Positions 49,191 to 64,000 of a stretch of 64,000 bases of DNA are shown here, in pieces. The position numbers and the translations under genes were made by a program. The notes beneath the pieces are model-generated. The model did no database searches and was not told the DNA's origin. It saw only the letters and a program-made list of their open reading frames with translations. The first letter of the stretch is position 1. Each line of letters begins with the position of its first letter. The DNA is from an uncultured Planctomycetales bacterium (GTDB taxonomy: Bacteria; Omnitrophota; Gorgyraeia; Gygaellales; Profunditerraquicolaceae), in contig CAZRVK010000003.1 in assembly GCA_964603585.1 (NCBI GenBank), positions 195,693 to 259,692 of the forward strand. Direction: 5' to 3'.

Positions 49191-51602
49191 ATGCATAAAA
49201 AAATACTGGTTGTTTTATTCTTGCTTTGTACTTTAGGCTATTCGCCAATATTTGCCCAGGAAACTGAAGAATCCAACGTGCCCGATGAGGCTTTAACATC
49301 AGTTGCTTCGGAGGTTCCCGCGCCAGATGCAGAAGGAATCAAGCCTTTGGCGAATTCCGGCAGCACTTCCTCTTTATTGGTTACTGCGATAGAGATCAAG
49401 GATAATAAATCTATCAGTACCAATACCATTATCTCAAAGATGAAAACTAAAATCGGTGCTCCTTATCAGGATACCGTCATAAGCGATGATTTGAAAAGGC
49501 TCTACCTGTTGGGTTTCTTTAGTGATATAAAGATTGATACCGAAAGTTATAAAAATGGCTTGAAAGTCATTGTTAGAGTTAAGGAACGGCCGATCATTGA
49601 TAAAATAACCTTCTCTGGGATTATCAGTATCACTCAAAAAGAAGAGAAGATCAAGGGGGCATTGAAATCCAAGGAAACGCAGTATTTGGATTATCCTAAC
49701 TTGGCTGAAGATGTGCGTACATTGCAGAAGATGTATGAAAAGATCGGGTTTAATCAAGCACAGATCACTTATACAGTTGATATCAATGAACAAACAAATC
49801 ACGCTACGGTACAATTTAATATCGTAGAAAGCAAAAAGGTGAGGATAAAAGATATAATCATTACCGGCAATAAAGCTTTTTCGAAGCAAAAGATACTAAG
49901 GTTATTAAAAACTAAACGGGCATGGTTCTTTAATGCCGGTATTTTAAAGGATGATGTAATCAAAGAGGATATTGAACGCATAAAATCATTTTATAGCCGT
50001 GAAGGATTTAGTGATGTGGTGGTGGAGTATCAGGTTAATTCCGATCCGGAAAAGTTATTTTTACTGATCGTCAGCATCGATATCCAGGAAGGCAACAGGT
50101 ATTTAGTAGGCAACCTGCTTATAAACGGCAATAAGGATATCCCGGAAAAGCTGATTTTGGCAAGATTAAAGGATTGCCTGCCTGGAAAAACATTCAGCCA
50201 GGATGCGTTGAAGAAAGATATTGCTAATATTCAAGGCTTATATTTTGACCGTGGATATATTTCGGTGCAGGTCCAGGAATCAACCTTTCTAAATCCGGAT
50301 ACTAACCGTATAGATGTAGTCTATAATATTGTTGAAAACCAGGTGGCTTATGTCGATAAGATTAAAGTTAGAGGCAATGTAAAAACCAAGGATATAGTTA
50401 TCCGCAGGGAGTTAAGGATCCGTCCAGGGGATAAGTTTGACGGAGATAAGCTTAAAAGAAGCAAGGAACGCCTGCAGAATTTGGGTTTCTTCGAGGATGT
50501 AAGTTATGATACCGAGGATACCCAGGAGCCCGATAAAAAAGACTTGGTTGTGGATATCAAGGAATCGAAAACCGGGGCTTTCAGTTTTGGCGGCGGATAT
50601 AGTACGGTTGACCAATTGGTGGGGTTTGTCGAGGTCGAACAGAAGAATTTCGACTGGAAGAATTTTCCTTATTTTACCGGTGCCGGGCAGAACCTGAAAT
50701 TCCGGGCATCCTTTGGCTCGGTAAGCGATAGTTTCGATCTAAGTTTTACCGAACCGTGGGTTTTTGATTTTCCGGTTTCTTTTGGTTTTGACGGTTATAA
50801 ACGGACCCATGACCGGGATGCTGATTTAGGATATGGTTACAGCGAAACCGTGGTTGGCGGCGATCTGCGCCTGGGGAAGGAATTTTCTGAATACATAAGA
50901 GGGGATCTTGTTTACCGCCTGGATCAGATAAAGATCGGCGACCCCGATACCAATGCCAGTCAGGAATTATTAAAAGAGGTTGGAAAGAATGTCATCAGCA
51001 GTACGCAGTTTGGGCTGACTTATGACAGCAGGGACAATGTCTTTGACCCGACAAGAGGTAATGTATTCAGCGGTTCTACCGAGTTAGCCGGAGGTCCGTT
51101 CAGCGGAGACAAGAATTATTTTAAGTTTGTAGGCAGGGCTTCGCATTATATCGGATTATTCCGGGGTTCGACCCTTGAGTTCCGCGGCAGGATGGGGTTA
51201 GGGACTGCTTATGGGAATTCAGATACTATCCCGATATATGAAAGATTTTTTGCCGGCGGCGGTAGCACTGTCAGAGGGTATCGTGAACGTAAAATCGGCC
51301 CATATGATCCGATAACCAAGGATCCATTAGGCGGGGATTCATTATTTATCGGGAATGTAGAATATCTGTATCCCATTTTAAGTTTTATGAAAATCGCAGC
51401 ATTTTACGATGTCGGTAATGTTTGGGAGAAAATAGGTGATTTTGGCACGGGGAATTTAAAATCCGGGCTTGGCCTTGGTTTGAGGATGAAAACCCCGATC
51501 GGCCCGATCATGCTCGATTATGGTATCCCTCTGAATAAGGAGTCCGGAGAAGATAGTAAAAGTGACGGCCGTTTCCATTTTAGCGTAAGCCACGGTTTCT
51601 AA
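49191..51602 (+). CDS. bamA: outer membrane protein assembly factor BamA (Omp85)
   Basis: Signal peptide, repeated POTRA-like units, C-terminal beta-barrel ending HGF. 803 aa. Confidence 0.85.
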   Translation: MHKKILVVLFLLCTLGYSPIFAQETEESNVPDEALTSVASEVPAPDAEGIKPLANSGSTSSLLVTAIEIKDNKSISTNTIISKMKTKIGAPYQDTVISDDLKRLYLLGFFSDIKIDTESYKNGLKVIVRVKERPIIDKITFSGIISITQKEEKIKGALKSKETQYLDYPNLAEDVRTLQKMYEKIGFNQAQITYTVDINEQTNHATVQFNIVESKKVRIKDIIITGNKAFSKQKILRLLKTKRAWFFNAGILKDDVIKEDIERIKSFYSREGFSDVVVEYQVNSDPEKLFLLIVSIDIQEGNRYLVGNLLINGNKDIPEKLILARLKDCLPGKTFSQDALKKDIANIQGLYFDRGYISVQVQESTFLNPDTNRIDVVYNIVENQVAYVDKIKVRGNVKTKDIVIRRELRIRPGDKFDGDKLKRSKERLQNLGFFEDVSYDTEDTQEPDKKDLVVDIKESKTGAFSFGGGYSTVDQLVGFVEVEQKNFDWKNFPYFTGAGQNLKFRASFGSVSDSFDLSFTEPWVFDFPVSFGFDGYKRTHDRDADLGYGYSETVVGGDLRLGKEFSEYIRGDLVYRLDQIKIGDPDTNASQELLKEVGKNVISSTQFGLTYDSRDNVFDPTRGNVFSGSTELAGGPFSGDKNYFKFVGRASHYIGLFRGSTLEFRGRMGLGTAYGNSDTIPIYERFFAGGGSTVRGYRERKIGPYDPITKDPLGGDSLFIGNVEYLYPILSFMKIAAFYDVGNVWEKIGDFGTGNLKSGLGLGLRMKTPIGPIMLDYGIPLNKESGEDSKSDGRFHFSVSHGF

Positions 51603-51660
51603 ACTCGGTAAATCCTGTGGTATAATCAATAAAAAAACAAAAACGAAAGGAGAACCAGAA

Positions 51661-52158
51661 ATGAAAAAGTTTGCATTGGTAATGGTGTTTGTTCTTGGTG
51701 TTTGTGTCGCGAGTGCATTTGCCGCAGATAAATTTGGTTATGTCAGCATGGAAAAGATCGCTGATAAATACAGTAAGGCTATAGAATATTCCAAGATCCT
51801 GGATGATAAAGAGGCAGGATATACTGCCGAGATTGATAAGAAAAAGGATGAGCTTAAAGCTGCTCAAGATAAATTGAATTTATTGAGCGATAAGGAAAAA
51901 GAAGCGAAAACCGCTGAATTTGAAGCGAAGTTCAAGAGTTTTCAGGATTTTGTCCGCGCAAAGCAGTCTGACCTGCGTAAAGAAGGCGTTGATAAAACTG
52001 TCGAAATATCAAAGGATATAAAGAACGCCATAACTACTTATGCAGAAAAAGAAGGGTTTACTTTGGTCTTTGATGCCGCGGCATTGGCATATCAATCAAA
52101 GTCCATGGACATTACGGACAATATAATCGAGATCTTGAATAAGAACGCAAAGAAATAA
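51661..52158 (+). CDS. skp: periplasmic chaperone Skp/OmpH
   Basis: 165 aa with signal peptide and coiled-coil K/E-rich body, downstream of bamA. Confidence 0.8.
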   Translation: MKKFALVMVFVLGVCVASAFAADKFGYVSMEKIADKYSKAIEYSKILDDKEAGYTAEIDKKKDELKAAQDKLNLLSDKEKEAKTAEFEAKFKSFQDFVRAKQSDLRKEGVDKTVEISKDIKNAITTYAEKEGFTLVFDAAALAYQSKSMDITDNIIEILNKNAKK

Positions 52159-52179
52159 CCTGTTTAAAGGCCGAAATTA

Positions 52180-53220
52180 ATGCGGAAGACTTTAAAGGAA
52201 ATAGCCTTACTTATAGAAGGAGAGGTTGTCGGCGACGACAGTATCGTGATTACCGGAGCCTCGGGGATAAGAGAGGCTCAATCCGGGGATATTACATTCC
52301 TGGCAAATCCCAAATACATGGGTTTTATAGATAAGACCAAGGCTTCGGCGATAATTGTTTCGCCGGAGGTCGAGTCTAATATAAAACCTGTTATTCGCAC
52401 TAAAGATCCTTCTTTAGCTTTCGCGAAAATCGTCTCTTTGATTTCGGCTGTTGAAATCAGGCATCCTAAAGGGATACATCCCACCGCTATAATAGGCAAG
52501 GATGTTTTTCTCGGTAAGGATGTCGGGATAGGGCCTTATGCAGTTGTTGAGGATAATGCTTCCTTAGGCGACCACACGGTTATTTATTCCGGCTGTTATA
52601 TTGGATGCGGCGCAAAGATCGGAGCGCATGTTGTTATTTACCCGAACGTTTCTATTCGTGAATCGATATTGATCGGTAACCGGGTGATTATCCACAGCGG
52701 GACGGTCATTGGTTCTGACGGGTTCGGGTTTGTTAATATAAACGGGGTGCATCAAAAGATTCCTCAATTAGGAACGGTGGTAATTGAGGATGACGTAGAG
52801 ATCGGTTCGAATGTAAGTATCGACCGGGCAAGGTTTGATAAGACTGTTATTGGCCGCGGGACTAAGATAGATAATCTTGTGCAGATCGCGCATAATGTTG
52901 TCATTGGCCAGAATTCGATCATTGTTTCTCAAGCCGGTATCTCCGGCAGCACCCAGATCGGCCATGGGGTAACCTTAGCCGGACAGGCGGGATTAGTCGG
53001 GCATATCACTGTAGGCGATGGCGCGGTAGTTGCTGCGCAGGCCGGGGTGACTAAATCGGTCCCTGCCCGGACGATGGTGTCGGGTTATCCGGCTAAACCG
53101 CATGAGGTTGCGCGTAAGGTAAATGCCTGTGTGCAAAATCTGCCGAAGTTATATGAAACCATTGCACAGTTAAGAAAGAAAGTGGAAGACCTGGAAAAGA
53201 AAGTATCAAACCATGGATAA
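52180..53220 (+). CDS. lpxD: UDP-3-O-acylglucosamine N-acyltransferase
   Basis: N-terminal LpxD domain with left-handed beta-helix hexapeptide repeats. 346 aa. Confidence 0.9.
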
Positions 53221-54532
53221 CCAAAGGACTATAGCAAAAGCGATTGATCTTAAAGGTATTGGATTGCATACCGGCAACAAAGTGCACATGCGCCTTTTGC
53301 CGGCAAATGCAGATACCGGGATAAACTTTATCCGGGTGGATCTATCTCCGCGCCCGAAGATCAAGGCAGTTATGGCAAATGCGATCTCGCATGCACATAG
53401 TCCAAGACGCACCTCGATCGGTATGGGGGATGTCCAGATCCATACAATTGAGCATTTGATGTCGGCGTTATTGGGGTTAGGGATAGATAATATCGAGATC
53501 GAGATGGATAACAATGAAGTTGCCGGTATGGATGGCAGTAGTTTAAGCTTTGTCGATGCGTTAATAGATGCGGGCATTATCGAGCAGGATAAACCCAGGG
53601 AATATTATGTTATCCGCGACCCGGTGGTGGTAGAGGAGAACGGATGTTCTATTATCGCTTTGCCCGGGCCTGATTTTAAGATCTCCTATACCCTACAATA
53701 CAGAAATTCTTTTTTAGGGACCCAGTTCATGGAGGTGGTGGTTTCTCCGGAATCCTTCAGGAATGAGATTTGTCCGGCACGGACTTTTTGCCTTGAAGAG
53801 GAAGCCCAGGAATTACAGCGCAATGGCGTAGGTTTGGGCGCAAATTATGATAATACCCTGGTAGTAGGAAAATCCGGAGTGGTCAAGAATAAGTTGAGGT
53901 ATGACAACGAATTTGTCCGGCATAAGATGCTGGATCTTTTGGGGGATATAAGCCTTTTAGGAATGCCGATTAAAGGGCATCTTGTTGCTATCCGCAGCGG
54001 GCATTCCATGAATTTAAAACTGGCAAGAAAGATCTTGCAGCAAAAAGAGCGGTTGTTTTTGGGCGGGATCAGTATAAGTCATTGCCCTCAAGAAGGGGAA
54101 TCTTTAGAGGCGCAGGATATTATGAAGATATTGCCGCATCGCGACCCTTTTTTGTTTGTTGACCGGGTAATAAGGCTGGAAAGAGGCAAACATGCGGTAG
54201 GCATTAAGAATGTAACGGTAAATGACTATTTCTTTAAAGGCCATTTTCCCGGCCGTCCGGTAATGCCCGGGGTTTTAATGGTAGAGGCCATGGCTCAAGT
54301 AGGCGGGGTAATGATGCTTGCCAATGAAGAGAATAAAGGAAAACTGGCTTTTTTCTTGGCGATTAACAATGTCAAATTCCGCAAGACCGTTGTTCCGGGG
54401 GACCAGTTGATCTTTGATGTAGTTGCCGGAAAATTAAAATCAAAGACCGGACAGGTGCATGGAAAAGCATTTGTTGACGGTAAAGTAGTAGCCGAGGCAG
54501 ACCTTATGTTTGCCATAGTTGAGTCAAAATAA
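53213..54532 (+). CDS. lpxC/fabZ: bifunctional UDP-3-O-acyl-GlcNAc deacetylase / 3-hydroxyacyl-ACP dehydratase (LpxC-FabZ fusion)
   Basis: N-terminal half has LpxC motifs ([15 protein letters not shown]). C-terminal 150 aa is FabZ ([11 protein letters not shown]...[12 protein letters not shown]). Confidence 0.9.
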
Positions 54533-54545
54533 ACCGGGATATAAA

Positions 54546-55337
54546 ATGAAAATACATCCTACAGCGATCATTTCTAAGAAAGCAAAGTTGTCCAATGAGA
54601 TCGAAGTCGGGCCTTACTCTGTTATTACGGATAATGTGACTATCGGTGAAGGCGTAAAAATCGGCTCTCACTGCCTGATCGACGGCAATACTACGATAGG
54701 CAAAGGATGTGAATTCTTTACCGGGACGGTTATTGGCAGCCAGCCACAGGACCTTAAGTATAAAGGTGAAAACAGCACGCTTGAAATAGGCGATTATAAT
54801 ATCGTCAGGGAATATTGTACTTTTAACCCCGGTACCGGTGAGAACGGGAAAACGATCGTTGGCAATAACAATCTTTTTATGGCTTATTCCCATGTTGCTC
54901 ATGATTGCCGTCTGGGGAACAATTGTGTCTTGGCGAACAATGGTACTTTAGCCGGGCATGTGACTATTGAGGATATGGCGGTTGTGGGAGGGTTAGTTGC
55001 CATACATCAGTTCGTTACGGTAGGAAGGTTGTCTATTATCGGCGGATGTTCTAAGGTGGTTCAGGATATCCCTCCGTTTTCTACTTGTGACGGGCATCCG
55101 GCAGAGGTGTTTGGCCTTAACTTGGTAGGATTACGCCGCCATAATATAAATAGAGAATCAATAAAGCGGCTCACCCATGCTTTTAAGGTGTTGTTTAATT
55201 CCGGACTTTTAATGAAACATGCGGTGGAAATTATCGAAAAAGAGATGCCTCCGGTAAATGAAGTAACCTATCTCGTAAATTTTATCAAGAAATCCCAAAG
55301 AGGTATCAGCCATTCCTGCCGCGCATCTGCAAAATAG
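54546..55337 (+). CDS. lpxA: acyl-ACP--UDP-GlcNAc O-acyltransferase
   Basis: MKIHPTAIIS start with hexapeptide repeats and an LpxA C-terminal helical domain. ATG at 54546. The track ORF from 54519 overlaps the lpxC/fabZ end. Confidence 0.9.
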   Translation: MKIHPTAIISKKAKLSNEIEVGPYSVITDNVTIGEGVKIGSHCLIDGNTTIGKGCEFFTGTVIGSQPQDLKYKGENSTLEIGDYNIVREYCTFNPGTGENGKTIVGNNNLFMAYSHVAHDCRLGNNCVLANNGTLAGHVTIEDMAVVGGLVAIHQFVTVGRLSIIGGCSKVVQDIPPFSTCDGHPAEVFGLNLVGLRRHNINRESIKRLTHAFKVLFNSGLLMKHAVEIIEKEMPPVNEVTYLVNFIKKSQRGISHSCRASAK

Positions 55338-55395
55338 GCCAAACTTTCGTAAGCGCCGGTAGTGTTTTATTTCTAAAAGAAAATAAATTCTTAAT

Positions 55396-56196
55396 ATGAA
55401 AAAGATTGGATTAATTGCTGGTAACAGGAAATTCCCGCTTATTTTTGCGCAAGCCGCACGTAAAAGGAATTATTCCGTAGTTGCGGTAGCGATCAAGGGG
55501 GATACTGCCCGCAGGTTAAATAAACTGGTGGATAAGATACACTGGTTATCCCTTAGCGAGTTTTCCCGGATCTTCGAGATCTTTAGGTCAGAGGGGATAA
55601 CTGACGTGGTAATGGCTGGCCAGATCAGCCCTTGGCGGTTATTTAGTAAGGAAGTGGGCCGTGATCCGGAACTAAGGAATATCCTTTCGAATATAAAGGA
55701 CAAAAAGGCGGATACGATCTTTGGGTCAATAGCAGAAAGGTTAAAGGAATCTGGCCTGAAATTAGTGGACTCTACATTATTTTTAGAGGATTACTTGCCG
55801 AAAAAAGGGGTTTTGACCAGGAATGAACCGGATTTTTCTGGTTGGGATGATGTATATTTTGGTCTGGATCTGGCTAAAGAAATAGCCCGCCTGGATATTG
55901 GCCAGACAGTGGCGGTAAAAGATAAGGCGATTGTAGCGGTAGAAGCTTTAGAAGGTACGGACCGCTTGATTCGGCGCGCCGGAGCTATCGTCCGGGGGGT
56001 TGCAATAGTTAAAGTCAGTAAGCCTAAGCAGGACATGAGGTTTGATATTCCGGTAATCGGCTTGAATACTGTAAAGAATCTTATTCGGGCAAAAGGCGCA
56101 TGCCTGGCTTTTGAGGCAGGAAAGACACTTTTTATCGATAAAAAAGAAAGCCTGCAACTTGCGAATAAAAAGGGCGTGTCTATCGTTGCAATATAA
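55396..56196 (+). CDS. lpxI: UDP-2,3-diacylglucosamine pyrophosphatase LpxI (DUF1009) - tentative
   Basis: KIGLIAGNRKFPLIFAQAA N-terminus and ~266 aa size fit LpxI. Adjacent to lpxA. Confidence 0.6.
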   Translation: MKKIGLIAGNRKFPLIFAQAARKRNYSVVAVAIKGDTARRLNKLVDKIHWLSLSEFSRIFEIFRSEGITDVVMAGQISPWRLFSKEVGRDPELRNILSNIKDKKADTIFGSIAERLKESGLKLVDSTLFLEDYLPKKGVLTRNEPDFSGWDDVYFGLDLAKEIARLDIGQTVAVKDKAIVAVEALEGTDRLIRRAGAIVRGVAIVKVSKPKQDMRFDIPVIGLNTVKNLIRAKGACLAFEAGKTLFIDKKESLQLANKKGVSIVAI

Positions 56197-56266
56197 CGGG
56201 TTATGCATAAAAAGGCTTGACAGTACTGTATTTGTTAGGTATAACAATAGCACAAGAAAAAGGAGG

Positions 56267-56569
56267 ATGGAGATGGCAAGGATGAGTAGTGCTAAGACAA
56301 GTGCAGGTAAAGCAAGTGCAACTCAATTCAAGTTCTATGCGCCTAATGCAAAGAAGGTAAGCTTGGCGGGTAGTTTCAATAACTGGAATACCAAGGAATT
56401 TTGTGCTAAAAAGGATACAAAAGGCAATTGGGTAGTTAAGATGAGTTTAAAGCCCGGCCGGTATGAATACAAGTTCTTTGTTGACGGTGCCTGGATCAAT
56501 GACCCAAATTGTACGGATTGCGTAAGCAATTCTTTCGGTAGTTCTAATTCGGTTTTAAACATAAAATAA
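56267..56569 (+). CDS. stand-alone CBM48 / early-set glycogen-binding domain protein (~100 aa)
   Basis: ATG 56267 after an AAAAGGAGG RBS. FKFYAPNAKKVSLAGSFNNWN...GRYEYKFFVDGAWINDP is the CBM48/AMPK-beta GBD pattern. The track ORF from 56111 is an extension. Confidence 0.5.
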   Translation: MEMARMSSAKTSAGKASATQFKFYAPNAKKVSLAGSFNNWNTKEFCAKKDTKGNWVVKMSLKPGRYEYKFFVDGAWINDPNCTDCVSNSFGSSNSVLNIK

Positions 56570-56658
56570 AGAATAAGTTTCCCCACCTTCTCTTAGAATA
56601 TTCGATTTTAAGGTAGTTAGCCTATAAGCTAATATCTATAAGAAGGTGGGTTTTTTAT

Positions 56659-57378
56659 ATGCGCTATATATTCGGTCCTTTAAAGTCCAGAAGACTGGGA
56701 AATTCTTTAGGTATTAACCTTACTCCTTATAAGGTTTGTACATTCGATTGTATTTACTGCCAGTTAGGCAAAACCACCCAAAAAACACAGACACGCCGGG
56801 AATATTTCCCCGCCTCGGAGATCTTAGAGGAGATAAGGAACTGGTTTCAGCATAATCCTGATCAGGCGAGTACCCTGCAATATATTACATTTTCCGGTTC
56901 AGGCGAGCCGACCCTCAATGTTAGGATCGGAGAGCTGATTTCCGGAATAAGAAAGATCACTAATGTGCCGGTTGCAGTGATAACCAATGCTTCGTTGTTA
57001 AATGATCCCTTGGTGCGTAGTGCCTTATTGACGGCGGATTTGATCATACCTTCTTTAGATGCAGTAGTCCCCGAGGTTTTCCAGGAGATAGACCAGCCGC
57101 AAGAGGGAGTAAGAATAGAAGATATCATTAACGGTTTGATCAGTTTCCGCAAGGAGTTCAGAGGCCAGATCTGGCTGGAAGTGATGCTGGTAAGCGGGAT
57201 AAATGATGACCTGCGTTATATTAAGAAGCTCAAAGAGGTAATAGACCAGATTGATCCGGACAAGATCCAGATCAATTCTCCTGTGCGGGTCGGCACCGAG
57301 GCGGGTATTTCTTCTCCGGATAGGCAAAAACTTGAGAAGATAAAAGAGATCCTCGGGGAAAACTGTGAGATCGTTTGA
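56659..57378 (+). CDS. radical SAM protein (core domain only, no SPASM extension)
   Basis: CTFDCIYC CxxxCxxC cluster motif near the N-terminus. 239 aa. Confidence 0.75.
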   Translation: MRYIFGPLKSRRLGNSLGINLTPYKVCTFDCIYCQLGKTTQKTQTRREYFPASEILEEIRNWFQHNPDQASTLQYITFSGSGEPTLNVRIGELISGIRKITNVPVAVITNASLLNDPLVRSALLTADLIIPSLDAVVPEVFQEIDQPQEGVRIEDIINGLISFRKEFRGQIWLEVMLVSGINDDLRYIKKLKEVIDQIDPDKIQINSPVRVGTEAGISSPDRQKLEKIKEILGENCEIV

Positions 57379-57381
57379 ATT

Positions 57382-57454
57382 GCGCTCGTAGCTCAATGGA
57401 TAGAGCGCTAGCCTTCGGAGCTAGGCGTTGCGAGTTCGACTCTCGCCGAGCGCG
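57382..57454 (+). tRNA. tRNA-Arg (anticodon UCG)
   Basis: Manual fold: GCGCUCG/CGAGCGC acceptor, GCUC/GAGC D-stem, GCUAG-CUUCGGA-CUAGC anticodon arm, GCGAG-UUCGACU-CUCGC T-arm, discriminator G. Starts 4 nt after the radical SAM stop. Confidence 0.9.
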
Positions 57455-57478
57455 TGTTCATTAAGAGTTAATTCGCGT

Positions 57479-58495
57479 CTATTTGATCAGGGTTTTGTAC
57501 TCTTTTAAGTATTCGGTAGGTTCTATAGTTTTAGGAACAAACAGCAGTTTTATCTCCGAAAGATATTCCCCTTTATCCAATTTCATTACCGGCATCCCTG
57601 CTCCCAGCGTAGTATCTTTAATGATCGTTACTATTCTGCCTCCTGATAAGTTCTCGGCTGCATCAAAGAAAATACAGCTGTTCGGGATATCCCTGCGGTT
57701 AAAGCCTAAACTGGCATATCTCTGCCATGAGGGGGAGTAAACCATTATCGCTTCATCTGTCGCCTGTGGGATAATCACCCAGAAGTCTTTAAACTTTTCA
57801 GATTCTTTTAGTGTGGTAAAAGGGGGCTTTTCATCGTGGGCGGATTCGATGAATAGGATCTTTTGTCCGGGGGTTTTATACATAAAGCGGAGATTACTCC
57901 ATGTTTTTGGCGTAATTTCGGTCAGATCCGGTTCAGTCCCAAACAATAGTTTTCCGAAAGGGGAAAAGCCAAATTGCTGGAAAAACCCCACATGGGTATA
58001 AATATCATCTTTGAGGTTTTGTCTGGCAAGGATATCTACGCGTTTGGTATATTTATAAACCACTACATTGACTTTAGCAGAAAATACATCTTTGGATAAT
58101 GGTTTTGCGGCCCTATCAGGGTATCGATAGGTAATTTGTGATTCCGGAAAATCCAATTCTACTATTACTCGGTCATTTAAATCCTTAATTCTTTTCGTGA
58201 CCCCTTTATTCAGGTACATCGAATAACTGTTATCTAATCCGTCGGGTATATTATTGCCGTCAAAGGAATTATTCCCGAAATTAAAACAGGAAGCGATTTT
58301 TATGGAGTTACCTGAATCATCCTGAATAGAGATCCTGCCTCCGGTGAATTCGGTTTTCCAAATATTCACTTTGAGGTTACCGGTATCTACGAACACCTCG
58401 GCAGAAGTCTCCATGATCTCGGTTTTAGCGGCATAGGCTATTGAGGCGGCTGTAAATAGGAATATCCAGGCTATAATGCAGTATTTTTTTCGCAT
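57479..58495 (-). CDS. hypothetical secreted protein (338 aa)
   Basis: Signal peptide MRKKYCIIAWIFLFTAASIAYA. No recognised domain. Confidence 0.5.
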   Translation of the reverse strand: MRKKYCIIAWIFLFTAASIAYAAKTEIMETSAEVFVDTGNLKVNIWKTEFTGGRISIQDDSGNSIKIASCFNFGNNSFDGNNIPDGLDNSYSMYLNKGVTKRIKDLNDRVIVELDFPESQITYRYPDRAAKPLSKDVFSAKVNVVVYKYTKRVDILARQNLKDDIYTHVGFFQQFGFSPFGKLLFGTEPDLTEITPKTWSNLRFMYKTPGQKILFIESAHDEKPPFTTLKESEKFKDFWVIIPQATDEAIMVYSPSWQRYASLGFNRRDIPNSCIFFDAAENLSGGRIVTIIKDTTLGAGMPVMKLDKGEYLSEIKLLFVPKTIEPTEYLKEYKTLIK

Positions 58496-58667
58496 ACTTT
58501 GGATATTAGCAGATAATTGATAAGATTAAAAGTAAAAAATCACCGGCAAGCCGCCTTATTTTTTGGTTTACATCAGTATAGTTAGTGATATAATCAACAT
58601 AAGATTGGGAATTAGCATGATTTGCTTTGCCTTGCAGCTAAAACAGATAAAAAGGAGGCCTGGTAAT

Positions 58668-59111
58668 ATGAAAAAAGCGGTTTTGTTTTTTAGTTTATTT
58701 TTGTTTGTTTTAGTAGCTTTGGTGGATGTAAATGCTCAAGAATCCAAGCCGCCGGAGCCCGCTGATAATAGCCGTCAGGCGCTCATCGATACCCGGGATA
58801 TGCGCTATGAAAAAAGCCCGATCAATAAATTAGGCCGCGGACTGATCAATACCGTAACCTGTTTGATCGAGACTCCTGCGGGTGTTTACCGGGTAAGCAG
58901 TACTAAGGGAGCGATTGTCGGATGGACCCTTGGTTTGGCCGAAGGGCTGTTTACTTCACTTTTGCGGGGAGCCAGCGGTATTTTTGATGTAGTTACATGT
59001 ATTGTGCCACCGTACAATAAGCCTCTGATGCAGCCGGAGTATGCGATAGATAGTTTTGAAGAAAGCTACCGGGATTTAGGCGAGGCAGAGATGAAGATCC
59101 CTGACCTATAA
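58668..59111 (+). CDS. hypothetical secreted protein (147 aa); possibly exosortase-system-associated TIGR04073-like
   Basis: ATG 58668 after an AAAAGGAGG RBS, then a signal peptide. KLGRGLINTVT...IVPPYNKP resembles TIGR04073 from memory (low certainty). Confidence 0.4.
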   Translation: MKKAVLFFSLFLFVLVALVDVNAQESKPPEPADNSRQALIDTRDMRYEKSPINKLGRGLINTVTCLIETPAGVYRVSSTKGAIVGWTLGLAEGLFTSLLRGASGIFDVVTCIVPPYNKPLMQPEYAIDSFEESYRDLGEAEMKIPDL

Positions 59112-59125
59112 AGTATAATTGTTGA

Positions 59126-59160
59126 AAAGGGCTGAACTTAACGGTTCAGCCCTTTTTTAT
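59126..59160 (+). terminator. rho-independent terminator
   Basis: AAGGGCTGAAC-ttaac-GGTTCAGCCCTT followed by TTTTTAT. Confidence 0.8.
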
Positions 59161-59178
59161 TTAAGGATAAGATTGTGA

Positions 59179-59559
59179 TCAAGAATCCTTGATCATTGAA
59201 TAATATATGGTTATTACCACGATAATGAATATTGCTACGCAATGCAATATATCCGCATAAGTAGTTGCCGAGCCTTCTATTCCTACCTGTAATTTGGCAT
59301 CGAATCCCGAAGATAATACCAGGATGGTTGATGTGATTAGACAGTAGGAAAACGATTTTTTAAATCCCCAGAATTTTGTAAGGACAATAAATGTTAGCAG
59401 GATAAAAAAATCAAATACCGGATTATCGAATGAGAAGTGCAAGGCTTTTAACTGGCGGATATAGGGCTGTAGGGATTCGATAAAAGCGGACATCTTTTCT
59501 TTATCGGAGAAGATGCTGAACTTTTCTTGTATGTAGGAGATTACCCCTTCCAAGGACAT
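59179..59559 (-). CDS. hypothetical membrane protein (126 aa)
   Basis: Three predicted hydrophobic helices. Overlaps the upstream gene start by 1 nt. Confidence 0.45.
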   Translation of the reverse strand: MSLEGVISYIQEKFSIFSDKEKMSAFIESLQPYIRQLKALHFSFDNPVFDFFILLTFIVLTKFWGFKKSFSYCLITSTILVLSSGFDAKLQVGIEGSATTYADILHCVAIFIIVVITIYYSMIKDS

Positions 59560-60491
59560 TATTTTATCCTTTCAAGAACAGTATAAATGATCCCGCTGGC
59601 TATCTCTGGTTTGGGAAGTAAATATTTCCTGGCGGAAACAGAAAGATTCACTTTATTTTGCTTCTTTTGCACCTTTAAAGTTACTTGTGCTCCGTTTACC
59701 TCGCCAGTGATCAGTCCTTGGGATTTGTTGAAGTTAACGATTTTACCCATTTTTTGTACGGTTTCCCGGCTTATTTCATAGACCTGTTCGAGCTCCGAGG
59801 AGAAATCATATTCTGCGCTGTCTTTTGAAGTAAAAGTCGCAATAACTGCCACCGGTAAAATAGCCATTCCGGCTAAGGCAGAAACGCCGTAAATAGCCGC
59901 CCCCTGTATGCCTGCCGCTTTCATTGGCTCTGACAGGATCAAGGCGGTCAGCTGTTGAGCGCTGGTGATATTCTCATATTGCCGTTGTATTTTTAGATTA
60001 TAGGCATATACTGCGGGATTACTGCCAGCCGTATAATCTTTCAGGACGACCTGTCCGATATCCAGTTTCAATGAGTCTATCAGCAGGGGGATTTCCTCTG
60101 TTGGCTTATCGTTAGCCGGTTTTTTAACGATTTTTAAGGAATCAACATTCAATTCTCCCTTGCTGTTTTTTACCAGGACGACATCTTTTAATACGATATC
60201 GACTTTAGTCAGGTGCATTTTCTTTCTTAAAATGTTCCCGAGGTTATAATCCACATGGATTTTCGGTAGATCAAGGAGGACGCCTTTGGGGAAACTTTTC
60301 GGGTTATATATTTTAAGGCCGGAGATCCGGATTGCATGTTTTAAGATCCCAAAAGAGAAGCTATCGATATGAACCGGGGCTCCGACTACATGGGAAGCCG
60401 TGATAGTTACTGTTGATTTAATGATGGGGTCTTTTAGCAGGATGGCGCCAAAAACAAGTATTACTGTTAAGGCAAAGACCATTTTTTTCAT
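59559..60491 (-). CDS. hypothetical secreted protein (310 aa)
   Basis: Signal peptide MKKMVFALTVILVFGAILL. No recognised domain. Confidence 0.5.
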   Translation of the reverse strand: MKKMVFALTVILVFGAILLKDPIIKSTVTITASHVVGAPVHIDSFSFGILKHAIRISGLKIYNPKSFPKGVLLDLPKIHVDYNLGNILRKKMHLTKVDIVLKDVVLVKNSKGELNVDSLKIVKKPANDKPTEEIPLLIDSLKLDIGQVVLKDYTAGSNPAVYAYNLKIQRQYENITSAQQLTALILSEPMKAAGIQGAAIYGVSALAGMAILPVAVIATFTSKDSAEYDFSSELEQVYEISRETVQKMGKIVNFNKSQGLITGEVNGAQVTLKVQKKQNKVNLSVSARKYLLPKPEIASGIIYTVLERIK

Positions 60492-60672
60492 TTTCCTGCT
60501 CCTTTCTAAGAATACGCCTTAAAGACATTATACCGCTGATAGTTTAAATAGCAATAATTTAGCTTACTATAATTTCTGACAGGGACGATAGTGGAATAAA
60601 GTCAGAAAAAAACAGAATCACCCCATTTACATTTATAGTCCCGAATATTATTATAATAAAGTAATAAAGGGT

Positions 60673-60695
60673 AATAAAGGGGACGTTTCTATTTT
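60673..60695 (+). repeat. conserved 23-bp cassette motif, copy 1 (AATAAAGGGGACGTTTCTATTTT), preceded by a partial copy at 60663-60671
   Basis: Exact match to the family consensus. Confidence 0.8.
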
Positions 60696-60793
60696 TTTGT
60701 TGCTGGGATAGAGTATTAGATATAGCACTTATAATTTGCTATTTAGGATCGGTAGTTAGTATGTTATTTAGCCTGTTGAATACTAAATGATGT

Positions 60794-61036
60794 TTGAAAG
60801 TGGAGGTGGATGTGACGAAAGGAATAAAGTCATTTTTGAAGAAAAAGGATGGCAATAGGCAGAAAAGACAATGGAGCGATCCCATACTGATAAGGTTAGT
60901 GCAATTGAAGCATGATGAACTGATACTTGCTGGATGCAAGTATGACGCTTTGTGGGTGGATCCATCTACAAGCAACCCGGGTTGTATGATTGGCGGAATA
61001 TGCGGTTCTCCTTGCAGCACTCTTTCGGCTTCATAA
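60794..61036 (+). CDS. Cys-rich peptide family member P1 (start uncertain: TTG 60794 or GTG 60812)
   Basis: ...RQWSDPILIRLVQLKHDELILAGCKY...GCMIGGICGSPCSTLSAS shares the W-x-x-P-x-LI-x-LV, CK and terminal SAS pattern with P2-P7. Confidence 0.45.
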   Translation: MKVEVDVTKGIKSFLKKKDGNRQKRQWSDPILIRLVQLKHDELILAGCKYDALWVDPSTSNPGCMIGGICGSPCSTLSAS

Positions 61037-61147
61037 ACAGAGAACGAGGTGGCAATTATATCCTGGGGGCAGGCATTTTCAGCCCAGATTTCTTATTTAT
61101 TTCTAAATGTTTTGACAAGGTATCTTTATAAAGTATAATAATTGTTA

Positions 61148-61170
61148 AATAAAGGGGACGTTTCTATTTT
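61148..61170 (+). repeat. conserved 23-bp cassette motif, copy 2
   Basis: Exact AATAAAGGGGACGTTTCTATTTT, 47 nt upstream of the PepSY-like gene. Confidence 0.8.
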
Positions 61171-61216
61171 CTTATCCAAATTTAGCTGATTTTAATTTAT
61201 AACAAAGGAGGAGAGG

Positions 61217-61570
61217 ATGAGGTATTTAGCAGTAACAGGCGTGATCGCGGCCTTTTTATTCTCAATGGTATCTTTTGGGTATGCCCAGGATAAGAGTAAG
61301 GACGAAGTTATTTCTATCGCTATGGAAGCTTTAAAAGGGCAGAATATCCAATTAGAAGATGTGAGTGTTATTTATGATGAAGGCGGCAAGCTTTGGAATG
61401 AAAAAGTCGGTTATTTAGCAGAGGAAGATAAATCGCCAAACCATGGTATTTTAAGAAAAGGATTCTTGAAAAATTATAAAATAGTCTTATTCGATTTTAA
61501 AGAGCCGCTCCCGGATATTTGGGTATTTATCGATAAAGATACCGGAGAAGTCCTGGAAGTCTATAGGTAA
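61217..61570 (+). CDS. secreted PepSY-like small protein (117 aa)
   Basis: GGAGGAG RBS and signal peptide. Two motifs resembling PepSY (VISIAMEALKGQNIQLEDVSVIYDEGG ... FIDKDTGEVLEV). Confidence 0.45.
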   Translation: MRYLAVTGVIAAFLFSMVSFGYAQDKSKDEVISIAMEALKGQNIQLEDVSVIYDEGGKLWNEKVGYLAEEDKSPNHGILRKGFLKNYKIVLFDFKEPLPDIWVFIDKDTGEVLEVYR

Positions 61571-61591
61571 TAAAGGGTGGCGTTCCTGTTC
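61569..61591 (+). repeat. degenerate copy of cassette motif (AATAAAGGGTGGCGTTCCTGTT), copy 3
   Basis: 14/23 positions conserved. Overlaps the PepSY stop and precedes P2. Confidence 0.5.
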
Positions 61592-61621
61592 CTTTAAAAC
61601 AGGGAAGGGCCTGTGAAGATT

Positions 61622-61810
61622 ATGGGCTATAAGATAAGAAAACAGTGGAAGCAGCCTAATTTTATAGTATTAGTACGAATAAAAAAGCAGGAGGCAGTTC
61701 TTGCGGTCTGCAAGCTTTATTCGAACAGTGATGGTCCGGAGAACGTTTCATTTTCTGGATGTGGAGAGGCTAACCCATTTGATTTTTGCTATGATGACGC
61801 CCTGTCATGA
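61622..61810 (+). CDS. Cys-rich peptide family member P2 (alt. GTG start 61613)
   Basis: MGYKIRKQWKQPNFIVLVRIKKQEAVLAVCKLYSNSDGPENVSFSGCGEANPFDFCYDDALS. Confidence 0.6.
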   Translation: MGYKIRKQWKQPNFIVLVRIKKQEAVLAVCKLYSNSDGPENVSFSGCGEANPFDFCYDDALS

Positions 61811-61876
61811 CCAGTGATAATTATCGTTTATTTTTGCATACATATGGACGGGATGTTTCGAGTAAAAAGGCAGGGC

Positions 61877-61899
61877 AATAAAGGGGACGTTTCTATTTT
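61877..61899 (+). repeat. conserved 23-bp cassette motif, copy 4
   Basis: Exact consensus. Ends 7 nt before ATG 61906. Confidence 0.8.
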
Positions 61900-61905
61900 T
61901 TAGAG

Positions 61906-62112
61906 ATGGAATATGGCATGAATTATAAAATAAAAAAGAGCTGGAAGCAGCCTGCGCTGATACGGTTGGTAAGAGAAAGTAAGGAGGAGCGGGTACTTGT
62001 AACCTGCAAACTAGGAGTTGGTGTTGCAGTAGTTGGTCCTGATGTGTTGTTTGATTCGTGTATGCTGGGTGCAGAGTGTGATTTTAATTGTGACTCGTTT
62101 GCGGCATCTTAG
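61906..62112 (+). CDS. Cys-rich peptide family member P3 (alt. start ATG 61918 giving MNYKIKK...)
   Basis: M(EYG)MNYKIKKSWKQPALIRLVRESKEERVLVTCKLGVGVAVVGPDVLFDSCMLGAECDFNCDSFAAS. Confidence 0.6.
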   Translation: MEYGMNYKIKKSWKQPALIRLVRESKEERVLVTCKLGVGVAVVGPDVLFDSCMLGAECDFNCDSFAAS

Positions 62113-62154
62113 GGAGAAATGAACCAGAACTTAGGAACTTGAGTTTACCGTGTA

Positions 62155-62220
62155 GCAATAAAGGGGACGTTTCTATTTTCTTAGCGATCAATAAAGGGGA
62201 CGTTTCTATTTTCTTAGCGA
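62155..62220 (+). repeat. tandem duplication of a 33-bp unit carrying the cassette motif (copies 5 and 6 at 62157-62179 and 62190-62212)
   Basis: caataaaggggacgtttctattttcttagcgat appears twice consecutively. Confidence 0.85.
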
Positions 62221-62232
62221 TGAAAATACGAT

Positions 62233-62427
62233 ATGGATTATAAAATAAAAAAACACTGGAAGCAGCCGCACTTTATCGTGCTGATAAAGAATAAATTTGA
62301 GGAAAGGGTCCTTGTAGTTTGCAAGGTTAATCCTGGAGGCATAAGTAGCCCTGATGCTACGTTAAGTGAATGCAACCTTGATATAGATGGTTGTAACCCT
62401 GTTTGTTCAGTTATATCTGCGTCATGA
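62233..62427 (+). CDS. Cys-rich peptide family member P4
   Basis: MDYKIKKHWKQPHFIVLIKNKFEERVLVVCKVNPGGISSPDATLSECNLDIDGCNPVCSVISAS. Confidence 0.65.
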   Translation: MDYKIKKHWKQPHFIVLIKNKFEERVLVVCKVNPGGISSPDATLSECNLDIDGCNPVCSVISAS

Positions 62428-62446
62428 TTTCAGTAATAAAGGGGAT

Positions 62447-62469
62447 AATAAAGGGTACGTTTCTATTTT
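62447..62469 (+). repeat. cassette motif copy 7 (AATAAAGGGTACGTTTCTATTTT), with partial copy at 62435-62444
   Basis: One mismatch to consensus. Followed by cttagcgatg as in the tandem copies. Confidence 0.8.
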
Positions 62470-62489
62470 CTTAGCGATGAAAACACAAT

Positions 62490-62678
62490 ATGGATTATAA
62501 AATAAAAAAACACTGGAAGCAGCCGCATTTTATTATATTAGTTAGGAAATATAGGCCAGAGAGGGTGCTAGTAATTTGCAAGACGAAAAGTACGGGGCAG
62601 TATCCGGGAGTGGTGGAGGATTCATGCCAATCTTTGGATGTTTCCTGCGATAACTGTGAGATAACAGGATCTTCTTAG
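62490..62678 (+). CDS. Cys-rich peptide family member P5
   Basis: MDYKIKKHWKQPHFIILVRKYRPERVLVICKTKSTGQYPGVVEDSCQSLDVSCDNCEITGSS. Confidence 0.65.
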   Translation: MDYKIKKHWKQPHFIILVRKYRPERVLVICKTKSTGQYPGVVEDSCQSLDVSCDNCEITGSS

Positions 62679-62688
62679 TCTATCAAGT

Positions 62689-62711
62689 AATAAAGGGAAC
62701 GTTTCTATTTT
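62689..62711 (+). repeat. cassette motif copy 8 (AATAAAGGGAACGTTTCTATTTT)
   Basis: One G->A change relative to consensus. Confidence 0.8.
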
Positions 62712-62762
62712 TAGCCACACTTAGTTTTTCTCTCTTAGGATTAAATTACGATTAAACTAAAT

Positions 62763-62933
62763 ATGAATCATAAACTAAAGAAGCAGTGGAAGCAGCCTGC
62801 GCTGGTAAGGTTGGTAAGAGGAGATAGTAAAGAGATGGCACTATCGGGGTGTAAATCTGTTGACTTGACTGGGCCGATTAATTTCGCTCACGCCTGCGAA
62901 TGTCTGCTTTGTTCCGAATCAGTTATCTCATAA
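62763..62933 (+). CDS. Cys-rich peptide family member P6 (56 aa; below ORF-track threshold)
   Basis: MNHKLKKQWKQPALVRLVRGDSKEMALSGCKSVDLTGPINFAHACECLLCSESVIS, translated by hand from ATG 62763 to TAA 62931-62933. Confidence 0.55.
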   Translation: MNHKLKKQWKQPALVRLVRGDSKEMALSGCKSVDLTGPINFAHACECLLCSESVIS

Positions 62934-62954
62934 CTCTTAGCTTTGGAATAAAGG

Positions 62955-62977
62955 AATAAAGGGAACGTTTCTATTTT
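62955..62977 (+). repeat. cassette motif copy 9 (AATAAAGGGAACGTTTCTATTTT), with partial copy at 62947-62954
   Basis: Precedes the Cys-rich 65-aa gene by 77 nt. Confidence 0.8.
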
Positions 62978-63053
62978 TTTTAGCCGTAATATTAGGTGGT
63001 AGTTGAGTTTTTTAGCAGATGTCTGGCGAAATCAGGGGGAAGAGGAAGTAATA

Positions 63054-63251
63054 ATGGATTGCTCTAACAAGAGAATAAATAATTCGATCTGTAATTGCAG
63101 TTATCCGGGATGCCCCAGGCATGGTATTTGTTGCGAGTGCCTTACTTATCATCGGTCGAACAACGAATTGCCAGCATGCTATTTTGATAAAGAGTCCGAG
63201 CGGACCTATGACCGGTCTGTAGGATATTTTATAAAAACCAAGCTGCCTTAG
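63054..63251 (+). CDS. small Cys-rich protein (65 aa) distinct from the P family: C-x-C-x4-C-x4-CC-x-C, YHR motif
   Basis: ATG 63054 after a GGGGGAAGAGGAAG RBS. MDCSNKRINNSICNCSYPGCPRHGICCECLTYHRSNNELPACYFDKESERTYDRSVGYFIKTKLP. The track ORF from TTG 63003 is an extension. Confidence 0.5.
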   Translation: MDCSNKRINNSICNCSYPGCPRHGICCECLTYHRSNNELPACYFDKESERTYDRSVGYFIKTKLP

Positions 63252-63407
63252 AAAAGAACAAAAGAAGAACAAGACGTGTTGTATAACATGAATCTTATCA
63301 AATAGTTAGGAAACAAATATTTGGCAGTCTATCGTTATAATTGTTTTGTAACTGTTGGGAATAAAAGAGATATGCAACATGTCTTACGCCTTTTACGCCA
63401 TTAGATT

Positions 63408-63611
63408 ATGAACAAGTTATATGTGGATCATAAACTAAATAAGCCGTGGAAGCAGCCTGCTCTAATAAGGTTGGTAAGACATGTTGTGCAAGAGAGAGTG
63501 CTTGTGGTGTGTAAAGGTGTTGGGCCGGTGTTAAGTAGTGGCCCGAACAGCTCTTTTGAAGGATGCGATAATGCATGTGAAGGGCCGTGCAACACTATGG
63601 CTGTCTCTTGA
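63408..63611 (+). CDS. Cys-rich peptide family member P7
   Basis: MNKLYVDHKLNKPWKQPALIRLVRHVVQERVLVVCKGVGPVLSSGPNSSFEGCDNACEGPCNTMAVS. Confidence 0.6.
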   Translation: MNKLYVDHKLNKPWKQPALIRLVRHVVQERVLVVCKGVGPVLSSGPNSSFEGCDNACEGPCNTMAVS

Positions 63612-63646
63612 TCTTTAGTTCGTGTTCTTTTGAGATTAGATTCTTT

Positions 63647-63669
63647 GATAAAGGGACCGGTTATATTTT
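63647..63669 (+). repeat. degenerate cassette motif copy (GATAAAGGGACCGGTTATATTTT)
   Basis: 16/23 conserved. Followed 44 nt later by a 24-aa ORF (63713-63787, MVFSSKAALEGKSFLYSVNKICYY) that does not belong to the family. Confidence 0.45.
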
Positions 63670-63832
63670 TTACGTGATATTAGAGGTTAGTCACTTTTGG
63701 GATAGGTTTTTAATGGTTTTCAGCTCTAAAGCTGCCTTAGAAGGTAAATCTTTCCTTTACAGCGTCAATAAAATCTGCTATTATTAACTTTCCCTTTTTA
63801 CGATATTAAGCTATAATTGTAATAGTATTTTC

Positions 63833-63875
63833 GGGCCATTAGCTCAATTGGCAGAGCAGGACACTCTTAATGTTC
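63833..63875 (+). pseudogene. 5' fragment of a tRNA-Lys(CUU)-like gene (acceptor 5' strand, D-arm, anticodon arm; no T-arm or 3' acceptor within window)
   Basis: GGGCCAT TA GCTC AATTGGCA GAGC A GGACA CTCTTAA TGTTC, then unrelated sequence. No ATGGCCC 3' acceptor complement before the window end at 64000. Confidence 0.45.
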
Positions 63876-64000
63876 CATATCCCGCCACTATACCGTTGTA
63901 AATAATAGACTTACGATTTAAAGTGTGAATAAAATTGTGAATAGAATCAGAAATGCAGTTTATCTACGGATCCTTTTAAGTGGTCTTTAGATAGGTGAGA

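Follow-up and report, generated by a model that had tools for sequence, protein, structure and literature searches.

The stretch of DNA examined here (the window, 64,000 nucleotides (nt) long) comes from contig CAZRVK010000003.1 of an uncultured bacterium that GTDB places in the phylum Omnitrophota. Near its right end an intact tRNA-Arg(TCG) gene is followed by a segment of mixed content (57456-63832) and then by the 5' part of a tRNA-Lys(CTT) gene. A first-pass annotation had treated this segment as an accessory region, possibly an island or a rearrangement hotspot bounded by the two tRNA sequences. Comparison with related lineages indicates that the two tRNA genes are ancestral neighbours flanking a slot of variable content. 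The tRNA-Lys gene was probably split by an integrase-bearing element lying downstream of the fragment.

Layout of the locus in the window and in its relatives

tRNA genes were called with ARAGORN and with the Rfam tRNA model (gathering score 29). The features on which the argument turns are the following.

56659-57378: radical S-adenosylmethionine (radical-SAM) gene, 239 amino acids (aa), ending three bases before tRNA-Arg
57381-57455, plus strand: intact tRNA-Arg(TCG) gene (ARAGORN), directly 3' of the radical-SAM gene; left edge of the variable slot
63810-63817, plus strand: -10-like box GCTATAAT, 15 nt upstream of the tRNA-Lys fragment
63833-63875, plus strand: 5' fragment of tRNA-Lys(CTT), comprising the acceptor 5' strand, D-arm and anticodon stem-loop; putatively the B-O-C' core of a left attachment site (attL)
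63924-63947: tandem 12-nt repeat TGTGAATAAAAT / TGTGAATAGAAT, between the break in tRNA-Lys and the stop codon of the recombinase-like frame
63947-64000, minus strand: last 17 codons and stop of a probable tyrosine recombinase (integrase) gene, ending ...SHLSKDHLKGSVDKLHF-stop (six-frame translation and position-specific scoring matrix (PSSM))

ARAGORN called two tRNAs in the window, one of them the tRNA-Arg(TCG), which the Rfam model placed at 57382-57454 with 67.1 bits; that this gene is intact, as had been described, is confirmed by both. A Logan assembly of SRR15237810, independent and from the same strain, was 100% identical to the window over 51217-62173, and the Logan contigs that match the window end at 62173-62185, within a perfect 33-nt tandem repeat. 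The strain occurs in the SRA runs SRR15237810 and SRR15237811. The assembly is independently borne out as far as the middle of a peptide gene array within the segment, and not across the tRNA-Lys junction.

Relatives were found by anchoring on the 239-aa radical-SAM gene, with loci taken from genome and metagenome collections among the matches listed. The window was compared with four other lineages, the last of which comprises six contigs of one species. All are distant from it. Among the matches listed, the nearest radical-SAM relatives (80-83% identical) lie on contigs of too little length to inform the comparison. The genes alongside likewise assign the window to Omnitrophota.

L003: radical-SAM identity to the window 60%; tRNA-Arg to tRNA-Lys interval 4899 nt
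L005: radical-SAM identity 54%; interval 1589 nt
L086/L087: radical-SAM identity 68%; interval 2014 nt
L091-L096: radical-SAM identity 64%; interval 283 nt
Window: interval from tRNA-Arg to the tRNA-Lys fragment 6377 nt

In each of the four relatives the radical-SAM gene, tRNA-Arg(TCG), an interval and an intact tRNA-Lys(CTT) gene follow one another in this order, and tRNA-Arg(TCG) occupies the equivalent position in a further locus, L089. The upstream block, BamA-OmpH-LpxD-LpxC/FabZ-LpxA-LpxI-CBM48-radical SAM, keeps the same gene order in all of them for more than 10 kb. Downstream of tRNA-Lys(CTT), the archease and RtcB genes (an RNA-repair, tRNA-splicing ligase pair) follow in L005, L086 and L091, either directly or, in L005, past a two-gene insertion. 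In L086/L087 and L091-L096 the next gene after archease-RtcB is SerRS, with a run of tRNA-Ser genes behind it; the tRNA-Ser run of L005 lies further downstream. The neighbourhood spans 12812-14804 in L086, 11080-13030 in L091 and 12387-16766 in L005, and is a conserved association of tRNA and RNA-ligase genes in Omnitrophota. A search with the L005 RtcB returned more than 120 Omnitrophota RtcB proteins at least 80% identical to it.

The intervals themselves tell a different story. Translated comparison across the five lineages found no homology between any two intervals, or between any of them and the window segment, the tRNA itself excepted. Because the same tRNA order recurs in four other lineages around unrelated intervals, tRNA-Arg and tRNA-Lys are ancestral neighbours with a hypervariable slot between them rather than opposite ends of a single island. 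The tRNA-Lys fragment occupies the very place of the orthologous gene; it does not mark the far end of an insertion made at tRNA-Arg. The slot is a true hotspot of gene turnover between stable blocks, and in this the first-pass annotation was right: content differs completely in all five lineages while the flanks stay collinear, and the content of 57456-63832 was found in no compared lineage.

Several contigs of relatives end at these tRNA genes. That of L003 ends (at 15772) 3 nt after tRNA-Lys, and three Logan contigs (L085, L088 and L090) stop 29-56 nt after the radical-SAM stop codon, where tRNA-Arg lies in the window and in the other relatives. Such breaks are consistent with strain-variable DNA or with shared k-mers.

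The tRNA-Lys fragment and the sequence beyond the break

Positions 63833-63873 agreed with nt 1-41 of the intact tRNA-Lys(CTT) gene at 41 of 41 sites in L005 and in L086, and at 40 of 41 in L003; the perfect agreement with these orthologues rules out a chance likeness to a tRNA. Identity ends between nt 41 and 42, in the 3' strand of the anticodon stem directly past the anticodon loop. Nucleotides 42-43 read TC in the window and CA in the relatives, and TC is still able to pair with G28/G27, so that the substituted 3' stem arm, TGTTC, keeps its pairing with GGACA. The fold of tRNA positions 1-43 originally proposed for this sequence therefore holds, with a complete anticodon stem-loop.

The T-arm and 3' acceptor strand, reported as lacking from the outset, are indeed absent after the fragment, and the 3' half of the tRNA has no copy in the window at up to six mismatches. 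The fragment scored 24.9 bits against the Rfam tRNA model, under the gathering score, and ARAGORN called no tRNA at 63833; neither a complete nor an intron-containing tRNA-Lys was found within the window by either method. No further tRNA-Lys 5' fragment occurs anywhere in the window. A T-armless tRNA with an encoded CCA was also considered, the Rfam alignment pairing GGGCCAU with AUAUCCC (5 of 7 pairs) ahead of GCCA. It was rejected: the 56-nt RNA does not take the fold, with an energy z of -0.68 against shuffles.

Upstream of the fragment, the -10-like box GCTATAAT has counterparts in TATAAT boxes that precede the intact tRNA-Lys genes of L003 (GGTATAAT) and L091 (TGCTATAAT). It is probably the native tRNA promoter, kept with the fragment. 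In the core genes of the window 42% of lysine codons are AAG, and tRNA-Lys(CTT) is kept in all four relatives; a functional copy is accordingly expected elsewhere in the genome.

The 127 nt between the break and the end of the window are AT-rich (GC 0.34), in line with the earlier description. They had no match in phage records, in IMG/VR (used for viral searches) or in contigs of the Joint Genome Institute (JGI; used for metagenome searches). A junction 45-mer was absent from the JGI metagenome contigs, and BLAST against phage records returned other tRNAs only. The two 12-nt repeats within this stretch conform to TGTGAATA(A/G)AAT and are candidate arm-type integrase-binding sites of a P' arm.

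Beyond the repeats, the minus-strand frame ending in SHLSKDHLKGSVDKLHF is the sole long open frame that enters at the right edge of the window, and its stop codon (63947-63949) lies 73 nt past the break. SHLSKDHLKGSVDKLHF resembles the tails that follow the catalytic tyrosine in tyrosine recombinases, such as those of XerD (Y-THVATERLRQLHQQHHPRA) and archaeal XerA (Y-TKVSTKHLKEAVKKA), both from solved structures, and of a viral enzyme (Y-THMSKEHLINTHHKFHPRG). To test this resemblance with no fitting to the window, a PSSM of 17 positions was built from 59 distinct post-tyrosine tails drawn from 80 IMG/VR tyrosine-recombinase loci. The null consisted of the 1.54 million 17-mers free of stops that six-frame translation yields from the window and from all chromosomal loci. 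SHLSKDHLKGSVDKLHF scored 13.9 bits, at the 29th percentile of true tails (leave-one-out). This score was reached by 13 of the 1.54 million null 17-mers, among them the window tail itself and a true Xer in another chromosomal locus (L006), giving p = 8.5e-6 per position, which becomes about 1.9e-4 once the 22 positions that could be tested in the 127 nt are corrected for. Thus, 63947-64000 is probably the end of a tyrosine recombinase gene, whose catalytic tyrosine codon would be the first codon past the window. The initial statement that the window holds no integrase or transposase stands for every open reading frame (ORF) of the segment (Pfam and NCBIfam) and for ten of the larger upstream ORFs, scanned against Pfam, but not for the last 54 nt, which on the minus strand look like a recombinase end.

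How the tRNA-Lys gene may have been split

The reading we favour, at a probability of roughly 0.6, is that the slot between the tRNA genes has a lineage-specific filling and that tRNA-Lys was split by an integrase-bearing element downstream of the fragment. The gene would have been split by site-specific recombination at its anticodon stem-loop. The two arms of the anticodon stem would act as inverted core-type sites, and the strands would cross over in the 7-nt loop, the overlap region. The fragment at 63833-63875 would then be the native, promoter-proximal 5' piece, in which a foreign 3' arm follows the native 5' stem arm and the loop (B-O-C'). Read from left to right, the proposed arrangement runs from the GCTATAAT box through the native tRNA positions 1-38, the substituted 3' stem arm, a 48-nt spacer and the two 12-nt repeats to the 3' end of the recombinase gene, presumably transcribed toward the tRNA.

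In bacteriophage lambda, the order from attL into int begins with the host arm and the core, continues with a P' arm that contains short tandem repeats, and finishes with the 3' end of int pointing toward the core. The window has this same order, with an int-like stop codon within about 100 bp of the core. Lambda, however, uses no tRNA gene, and the repeats in the window are candidate arm-type sites. Given this attL-int-like layout, the displaced 5' piece would mark the attL of an element that lies to the right of the fragment, past 64000, rather than in the segment flagged at first pass. We infer the existence of this element, and some size for it, from the left junction. By analogy with islands that leave a 5' fragment, a 5' half borne by the element would regenerate an intact tRNA-Lys(CTT) at the far end, next to archease-RtcB. 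There, a second copy of GGGCCATTAGCTCAATTGGCAGAGCAGGACACTCTTAATGT would be expected to continue into CAAGGTCG...ATGGCCCA, forming an intact plus-strand tRNA-Lys(CTT) gene. The suggestion made at the outset, of an intervening element with its other junction past the window, is the best reading of the fragment, given the break at the anticodon arm and the recombinase tail 73 nt away.

Precedents for such a geometry have been catalogued. Anticodon-centred attP sites account for 2083 of the 3919 islands in Islander, the commonest class (PMC4383910), and 159 of the 3919 have a displaced 5' fragment upstream and a regenerated tRNA at the far end (PMC4383910). The window fragment lies in the orientation of the tRNA (plus strand) with native-like upstream context, and its identity to the orthologues ends at 41/42, after the anticodon loop, at a canonical crossover sublocation by the classes of that survey (PMC4383910). 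The likeness to islands in tRNA genes (tDNA islands) with a 5' fragment (PMC4383910) extends to the anticodon-arm split, the perfect identity of the fragment and the recombinase-like gene end at the junction; here, unlike there, the left junction and 17 recombinase codons alone are seen. Most likely, the element belongs to a known class, that of tyrosine-integrase elements targeting tRNA genes, and has the less common configuration with a 5' fragment.

Several points weigh against this reading. The 5'-fragment configuration is a minority one, at about 4% of Islander islands (PMC4383910). The integrase is read from 17 codons, in which +1 is S against T/A in the references and the last residue is F against P, both scoring negatively. 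The PSSM was built on Xer-like recombinases, and the gene could be of Xer type and not the integrase of an element, or could have decayed to a remnant. The junction is not in the independent assembly, whose Logan contig for this strain goes no further than 62173, and neither junction nor P' arm found a match in IMG/VR or JGI contigs. Since the relatives are distant (radical-SAM identity 54-68%), part of the variation in the interval stems from long divergence. Only the left junction and the 17 codons are visible, while the integrase body, the element and the regenerated tRNA would all lie past 64000.

Among the alternatives, the one that survives best extends the favoured reading. The segment would consist of decayed leftovers of earlier integrations of the same type, with the interval growing by accretion; we consider this possible, if unlikely. 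The 5'-fragment geometry places island DNA upstream of the intact tRNA gene (PMC4383910), the interval varies in length and content in every lineage, and successive integrations that push older elements inward have been described for tRNA-linked islands of Prochlorococcus (bioRxiv 10.1101/2020.12.28.424599). L005 contributes a further point: at 12324-12337, 63 nt upstream of its intact tRNA-Lys gene (12387), lies a 14-nt exact duplicate of the tRNA-Lys 5' end, GGGCCATTAGCTCA. This duplicate may be the scar of a past recombination on the tRNA-Lys 5' side; it also forms the 5' strand of a 10/11-bp hairpin with TGAACTAATGG. However, the window holds no second tRNA-Lys 5' fragment, integrase remnants are absent from its segment and from the relatives' intervals, and the fragment at 63833 carries a native-looking promoter. 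The Prochlorococcus islands, fed by tycheposons (bioRxiv 10.1101/2020.12.28.424599), resemble the locus in their lineage-specific cargo of varying size beside tRNAs and in the presence of a partial tRNA. They differ in that the window filling is without integrase, replication module or repeated partial tRNAs, and in that the present comparison is across distant lineages, not strains. Bolder still, and doubtful, is the proposal of an Omnitrophota element family that would recombine at the tRNA-Lys(CTT) anticodon loop and carry the 5' half of the tRNA, the interval growing by accretion and the envelope genes and peptide array being earlier cargo.

Quite unlikely, in our view, is a mere truncation, in which a deletion, an inversion or an insertion sequence or transposon that does not restore the gene left tRNA-Lys as a pseudogene and the recombinase-like tail is unrelated or coincidental. 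The 3' half is missing from the window and the fragment has no stable tRNA-like fold. tRNA-Lys(UUU) can in principle read AAG. Yet all 41 nt are perfectly kept, the break coincides with the edge of the anticodon stem-loop and leaves its pairing intact, the recombinase tail lies 73 nt off at a corrected p of about 2e-4, and a tRNA-Lys(CTT) retained by all relatives would be given up where AAG is 42% of lysine codons.

There is also a small chance that the join is an assembly artefact, the contig having jumped at shared tRNA-Lys sequence into another molecule, such as an excised or episomal attP or another strain. The junction lies outside the Logan assembly, which ends at 62173; the tRNA sequence is common to species, with 41-48 nt shared by L005, L086 and the window; and relatives' contigs (L003, L085, L088 and L090) break at these tRNAs. 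Such a jump still needs a real molecule in which the tRNA-Lys anticodon arm is followed by TCCATATCC and an integrase end. As that molecule is required in any case, an integrative element targeting tRNA-Lys would exist even if the join were chimeric.

The island reading of the first-pass annotation, in which 57455-63832 integrated at tRNA-Arg, or else between the two tRNA genes, and its integrase was lost later, fares worse, and we regard it as very unlikely. In its favour are the base composition of the segment (GC 0.393 against 0.44 in the core; a tetranucleotide correlation to the core of 0.884, where core windows of equal length go no lower than 0.914), an AAG share of 0.21 against 0.42 in the four larger genes, the lack of this content in relatives and the adjoining tRNA. 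In a classical tDNA island the same tRNA gene stands intact at one end and as a fragment at the other; here tRNA-Arg is at the left and a fragment of a different, ancestrally neighbouring tRNA at the right. Neither a tRNA-Arg fragment nor a direct repeat of its 3' end was found in the window (blastn-short and repeat search), and no integrase or transposase domain was found in any segment ORF (Pfam and NCBIfam). The tetranucleotide deviation comes from the array half alone (0.794), which is rich in short ORFs, intergenic DNA and repeats; the first half is normal (0.906), and GC content at third codon positions (GC3) is 0.35-0.47 in the segment genes, within the core range of 0.32-0.52. No viral relatives of the segment proteins were found in IMG/VR. 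Boundaries formed by two different tRNAs that are ancestral neighbours, together with the missing tRNA-Arg repeat and integrase and the core-like GC3, leave the island claim unsupported.

Finally, an intron within tRNA-Lys, or a gene in separate halves whose transcripts are ligated (RtcB being one candidate ligase), is hardly credible: the 5' half and promoter-like box are perfectly kept and the relatives' gene precedes archease-RtcB, but group I introns of bacterial tRNAs sit in the anticodon loop whereas the break is in the stem (41/42), no group I or II signal was found in 63780-64000, with the 127 nt on hand past the break, at E up to 10 (Rfam), the window has no 3' half, and the recombinase tail accounts better for the break.

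A phage or prophage origin was likewise rejected: the junction, P' arm, tRNA half and integrase-tail DNA are all absent from IMG/VR, and the segment proteins and peptides have no viral relatives there.

Content of the slot and meaning for Omnitrophota

The segment begins with four larger genes on both strands and continues with an array of small peptide genes. The Pfam scan covered the segment ORFs and ten of the larger upstream ORFs, and the NCBIfam scan the segment ORFs.

57479-58495, minus strand: 338-aa protein with a hydrophobic, signal-like N-terminus (ORF list); GC3 0.437, in the core range
58668-59111, plus strand: TIGR04073-family (exosortase-system-associated) protein, 147 aa; NCBIfam 68.8 bits, cut-off 50; also called on Logan contig L001
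59179-59559, minus strand: 126-aa hydrophobic protein, probably membrane-bound; no Pfam or NCBIfam family
59559-60491, minus strand: DUF748/AsmA-like envelope protein, 310 aa; Pfam DUF748 51.1 bits, cut-off 50, with AsmA weak
60673-63611, plus strand: array of seven paralogous peptide genes of about 56-74 aa (alignment A1)
60812-61036, 61613-61810, 61918-62112, 62233-62427, 62490-62678, 62763-62933 and 63423-63611, plus strand: the seven peptide genes
61217-61570: PepSY-like gene, 117 aa, interleaved in the array
63054-63251: DUF6485 gene, interleaved in the array

This content matches the earlier account of mixed-strand secreted or membrane genes followed by a peptide cassette array. The 338-aa protein matched no Pfam or NCBIfam family and has no relative in the viral contigs of IMG/VR, and the DUF748/AsmA-like protein has none in the JGI metagenome contigs. 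A terminator-like hairpin lies at about 59125-59160, 3' of the TIGR04073 gene. In the four larger genes (57479-60491) AAG accounts for 21% of lysine codons, against 42% in the core, despite normal GC3. The content is unique to the window among the five lineages, in a comparison of distant relatives where GC3 is core-like and the array half alone deviates in tetranucleotides. We conclude that 57456-63832 is a lineage-specific filling of the slot, made up of envelope or secreted proteins and an array of peptides resembling those that are synthesized ribosomally and modified post-translationally (RiPPs), and not a discrete integrase-delimited island.

The array peptides share a conserved N-terminal region of pattern KKxWKQPxLIxLVR...ERVLVxCK, followed by a variable, cysteine-containing C-terminal region (alignment A1). 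A profile search returned a family of 2360 clusters at 50% identity (E <= 1e-3), almost all of 55-75 aa, with the pattern KKxWxxPxLIVLVRxxxEExVLxxCK...GP...C...C..C....S. In this pattern W, P, E, L, CK and two further cysteines are invariant, and the C-terminal serine is near-invariant (alignments A1 and A2). The peptides match no Pfam or NCBIfam family and have faint matches to lasso-peptide leader models (E about 0.07). They resemble RiPP arrays whose leaders are of the type bound through a RiPP recognition element (RRE), with a lasso-like xxPxL motif, in having seven tandem paralogues, a conserved N-terminus and a hypervariable, cysteine-rich C-terminus. Unlike such arrays, they are accompanied by no maturase, RRE protein, protease or exporter in the window and belong to no curated family, and their modification is only putative.

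A 23-nt motif, AATAAAGGGGACGTTTCTATTTT, occurs upstream of genes in eight copies (0-1 mismatch) between 60673 and 62977; it is absent from the rest of the 64 kb (0 expected by chance) and from the loci of all relatives. Copies stand ahead of four of the seven peptide genes and ahead of the PepSY-like and DUF6485 genes, which are unrelated to them; this placement suggests that the motif is a promoter or operator common to these genes. In three of the peptide genes the start codon follows the motif by 18-20 nt, without a Shine-Dalgarno sequence, and degenerate copies are found at about 61568 and 63647. The perfect 33-nt tandem duplication at 62156-62221 contains the motif, and the Logan contigs of the same strain end exactly there. 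More repeats of at least 31 nt lie at 62232-62270 and 62489-62527, and repeats of this length may explain the loss of the remaining array from k=31 assemblies. An integron-like cassette array was considered and rejected, as the motif is a direct repeat, not palindromic, and the segment has no IntI.

The radical-SAM gene beside tRNA-Arg was also considered, as a peptide maturase, and rejected: it holds the same position in all relatives, which are without the peptides. The 239-aa protein is kept beside tRNA-Arg across Omnitrophota, and its only NCBIfam matches, to viperin, MoaA and TYW1, are sub-threshold. Relatives 40-55% identical occur in Thermodesulfobacteriota, Aminicenantes and archaea, and the JGI label for the protein is 'wyosine [tRNA(Phe)-imidazoG37] synthetase'.

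The sequence upstream had been described as housekeeping genes on the plus strand throughout; its housekeeping nature stands, but 28201-34127 holds minus-strand genes. A stretch of about 3.4 kb (45914-49380), encoding a 276-aa protein without family assignment and a CHASE2/HD-GYP-type signalling protein of 769 aa, is absent from the otherwise collinear L003 and L005, and L089 has a similar CHASE2-HD gene directly upstream of BamA. In L086, a TadA-like deaminase gene and tRNA-Ser(GCT) flank a 259-aa ORF with a weak LAGLIDADG_3 match (18514-19293), which may encode a free-standing homing endonuclease within the tRNA cluster.

For annotation, these results mean that the 6.4-kb segment should not be called an island on its tRNA 'boundaries' alone, and that the tRNA-Lys fragment is better recorded as a putative attachment-site remnant than as a pseudo-tRNA of obscure origin. 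A hypervariable slot flanked by tRNA genes is a familiar pattern and ordinary genome plasticity. The seven-gene array, from an uncurated peptide family of about 2,400 clusters, is a separate and probably more rewarding lead for RiPP discovery. To our knowledge, and from a limited literature search, no mobile element has been mapped and no integrative element characterised in Omnitrophota. If the favoured reading is true, it would give this uncultured phylum a concrete integrative element that attaches at the tRNA-Lys(CTT) anticodon arm, in the 5'-fragment configuration found in a minority of islands, and would explain why Omnitrophota assemblies tend to break at this pair of tRNA genes.

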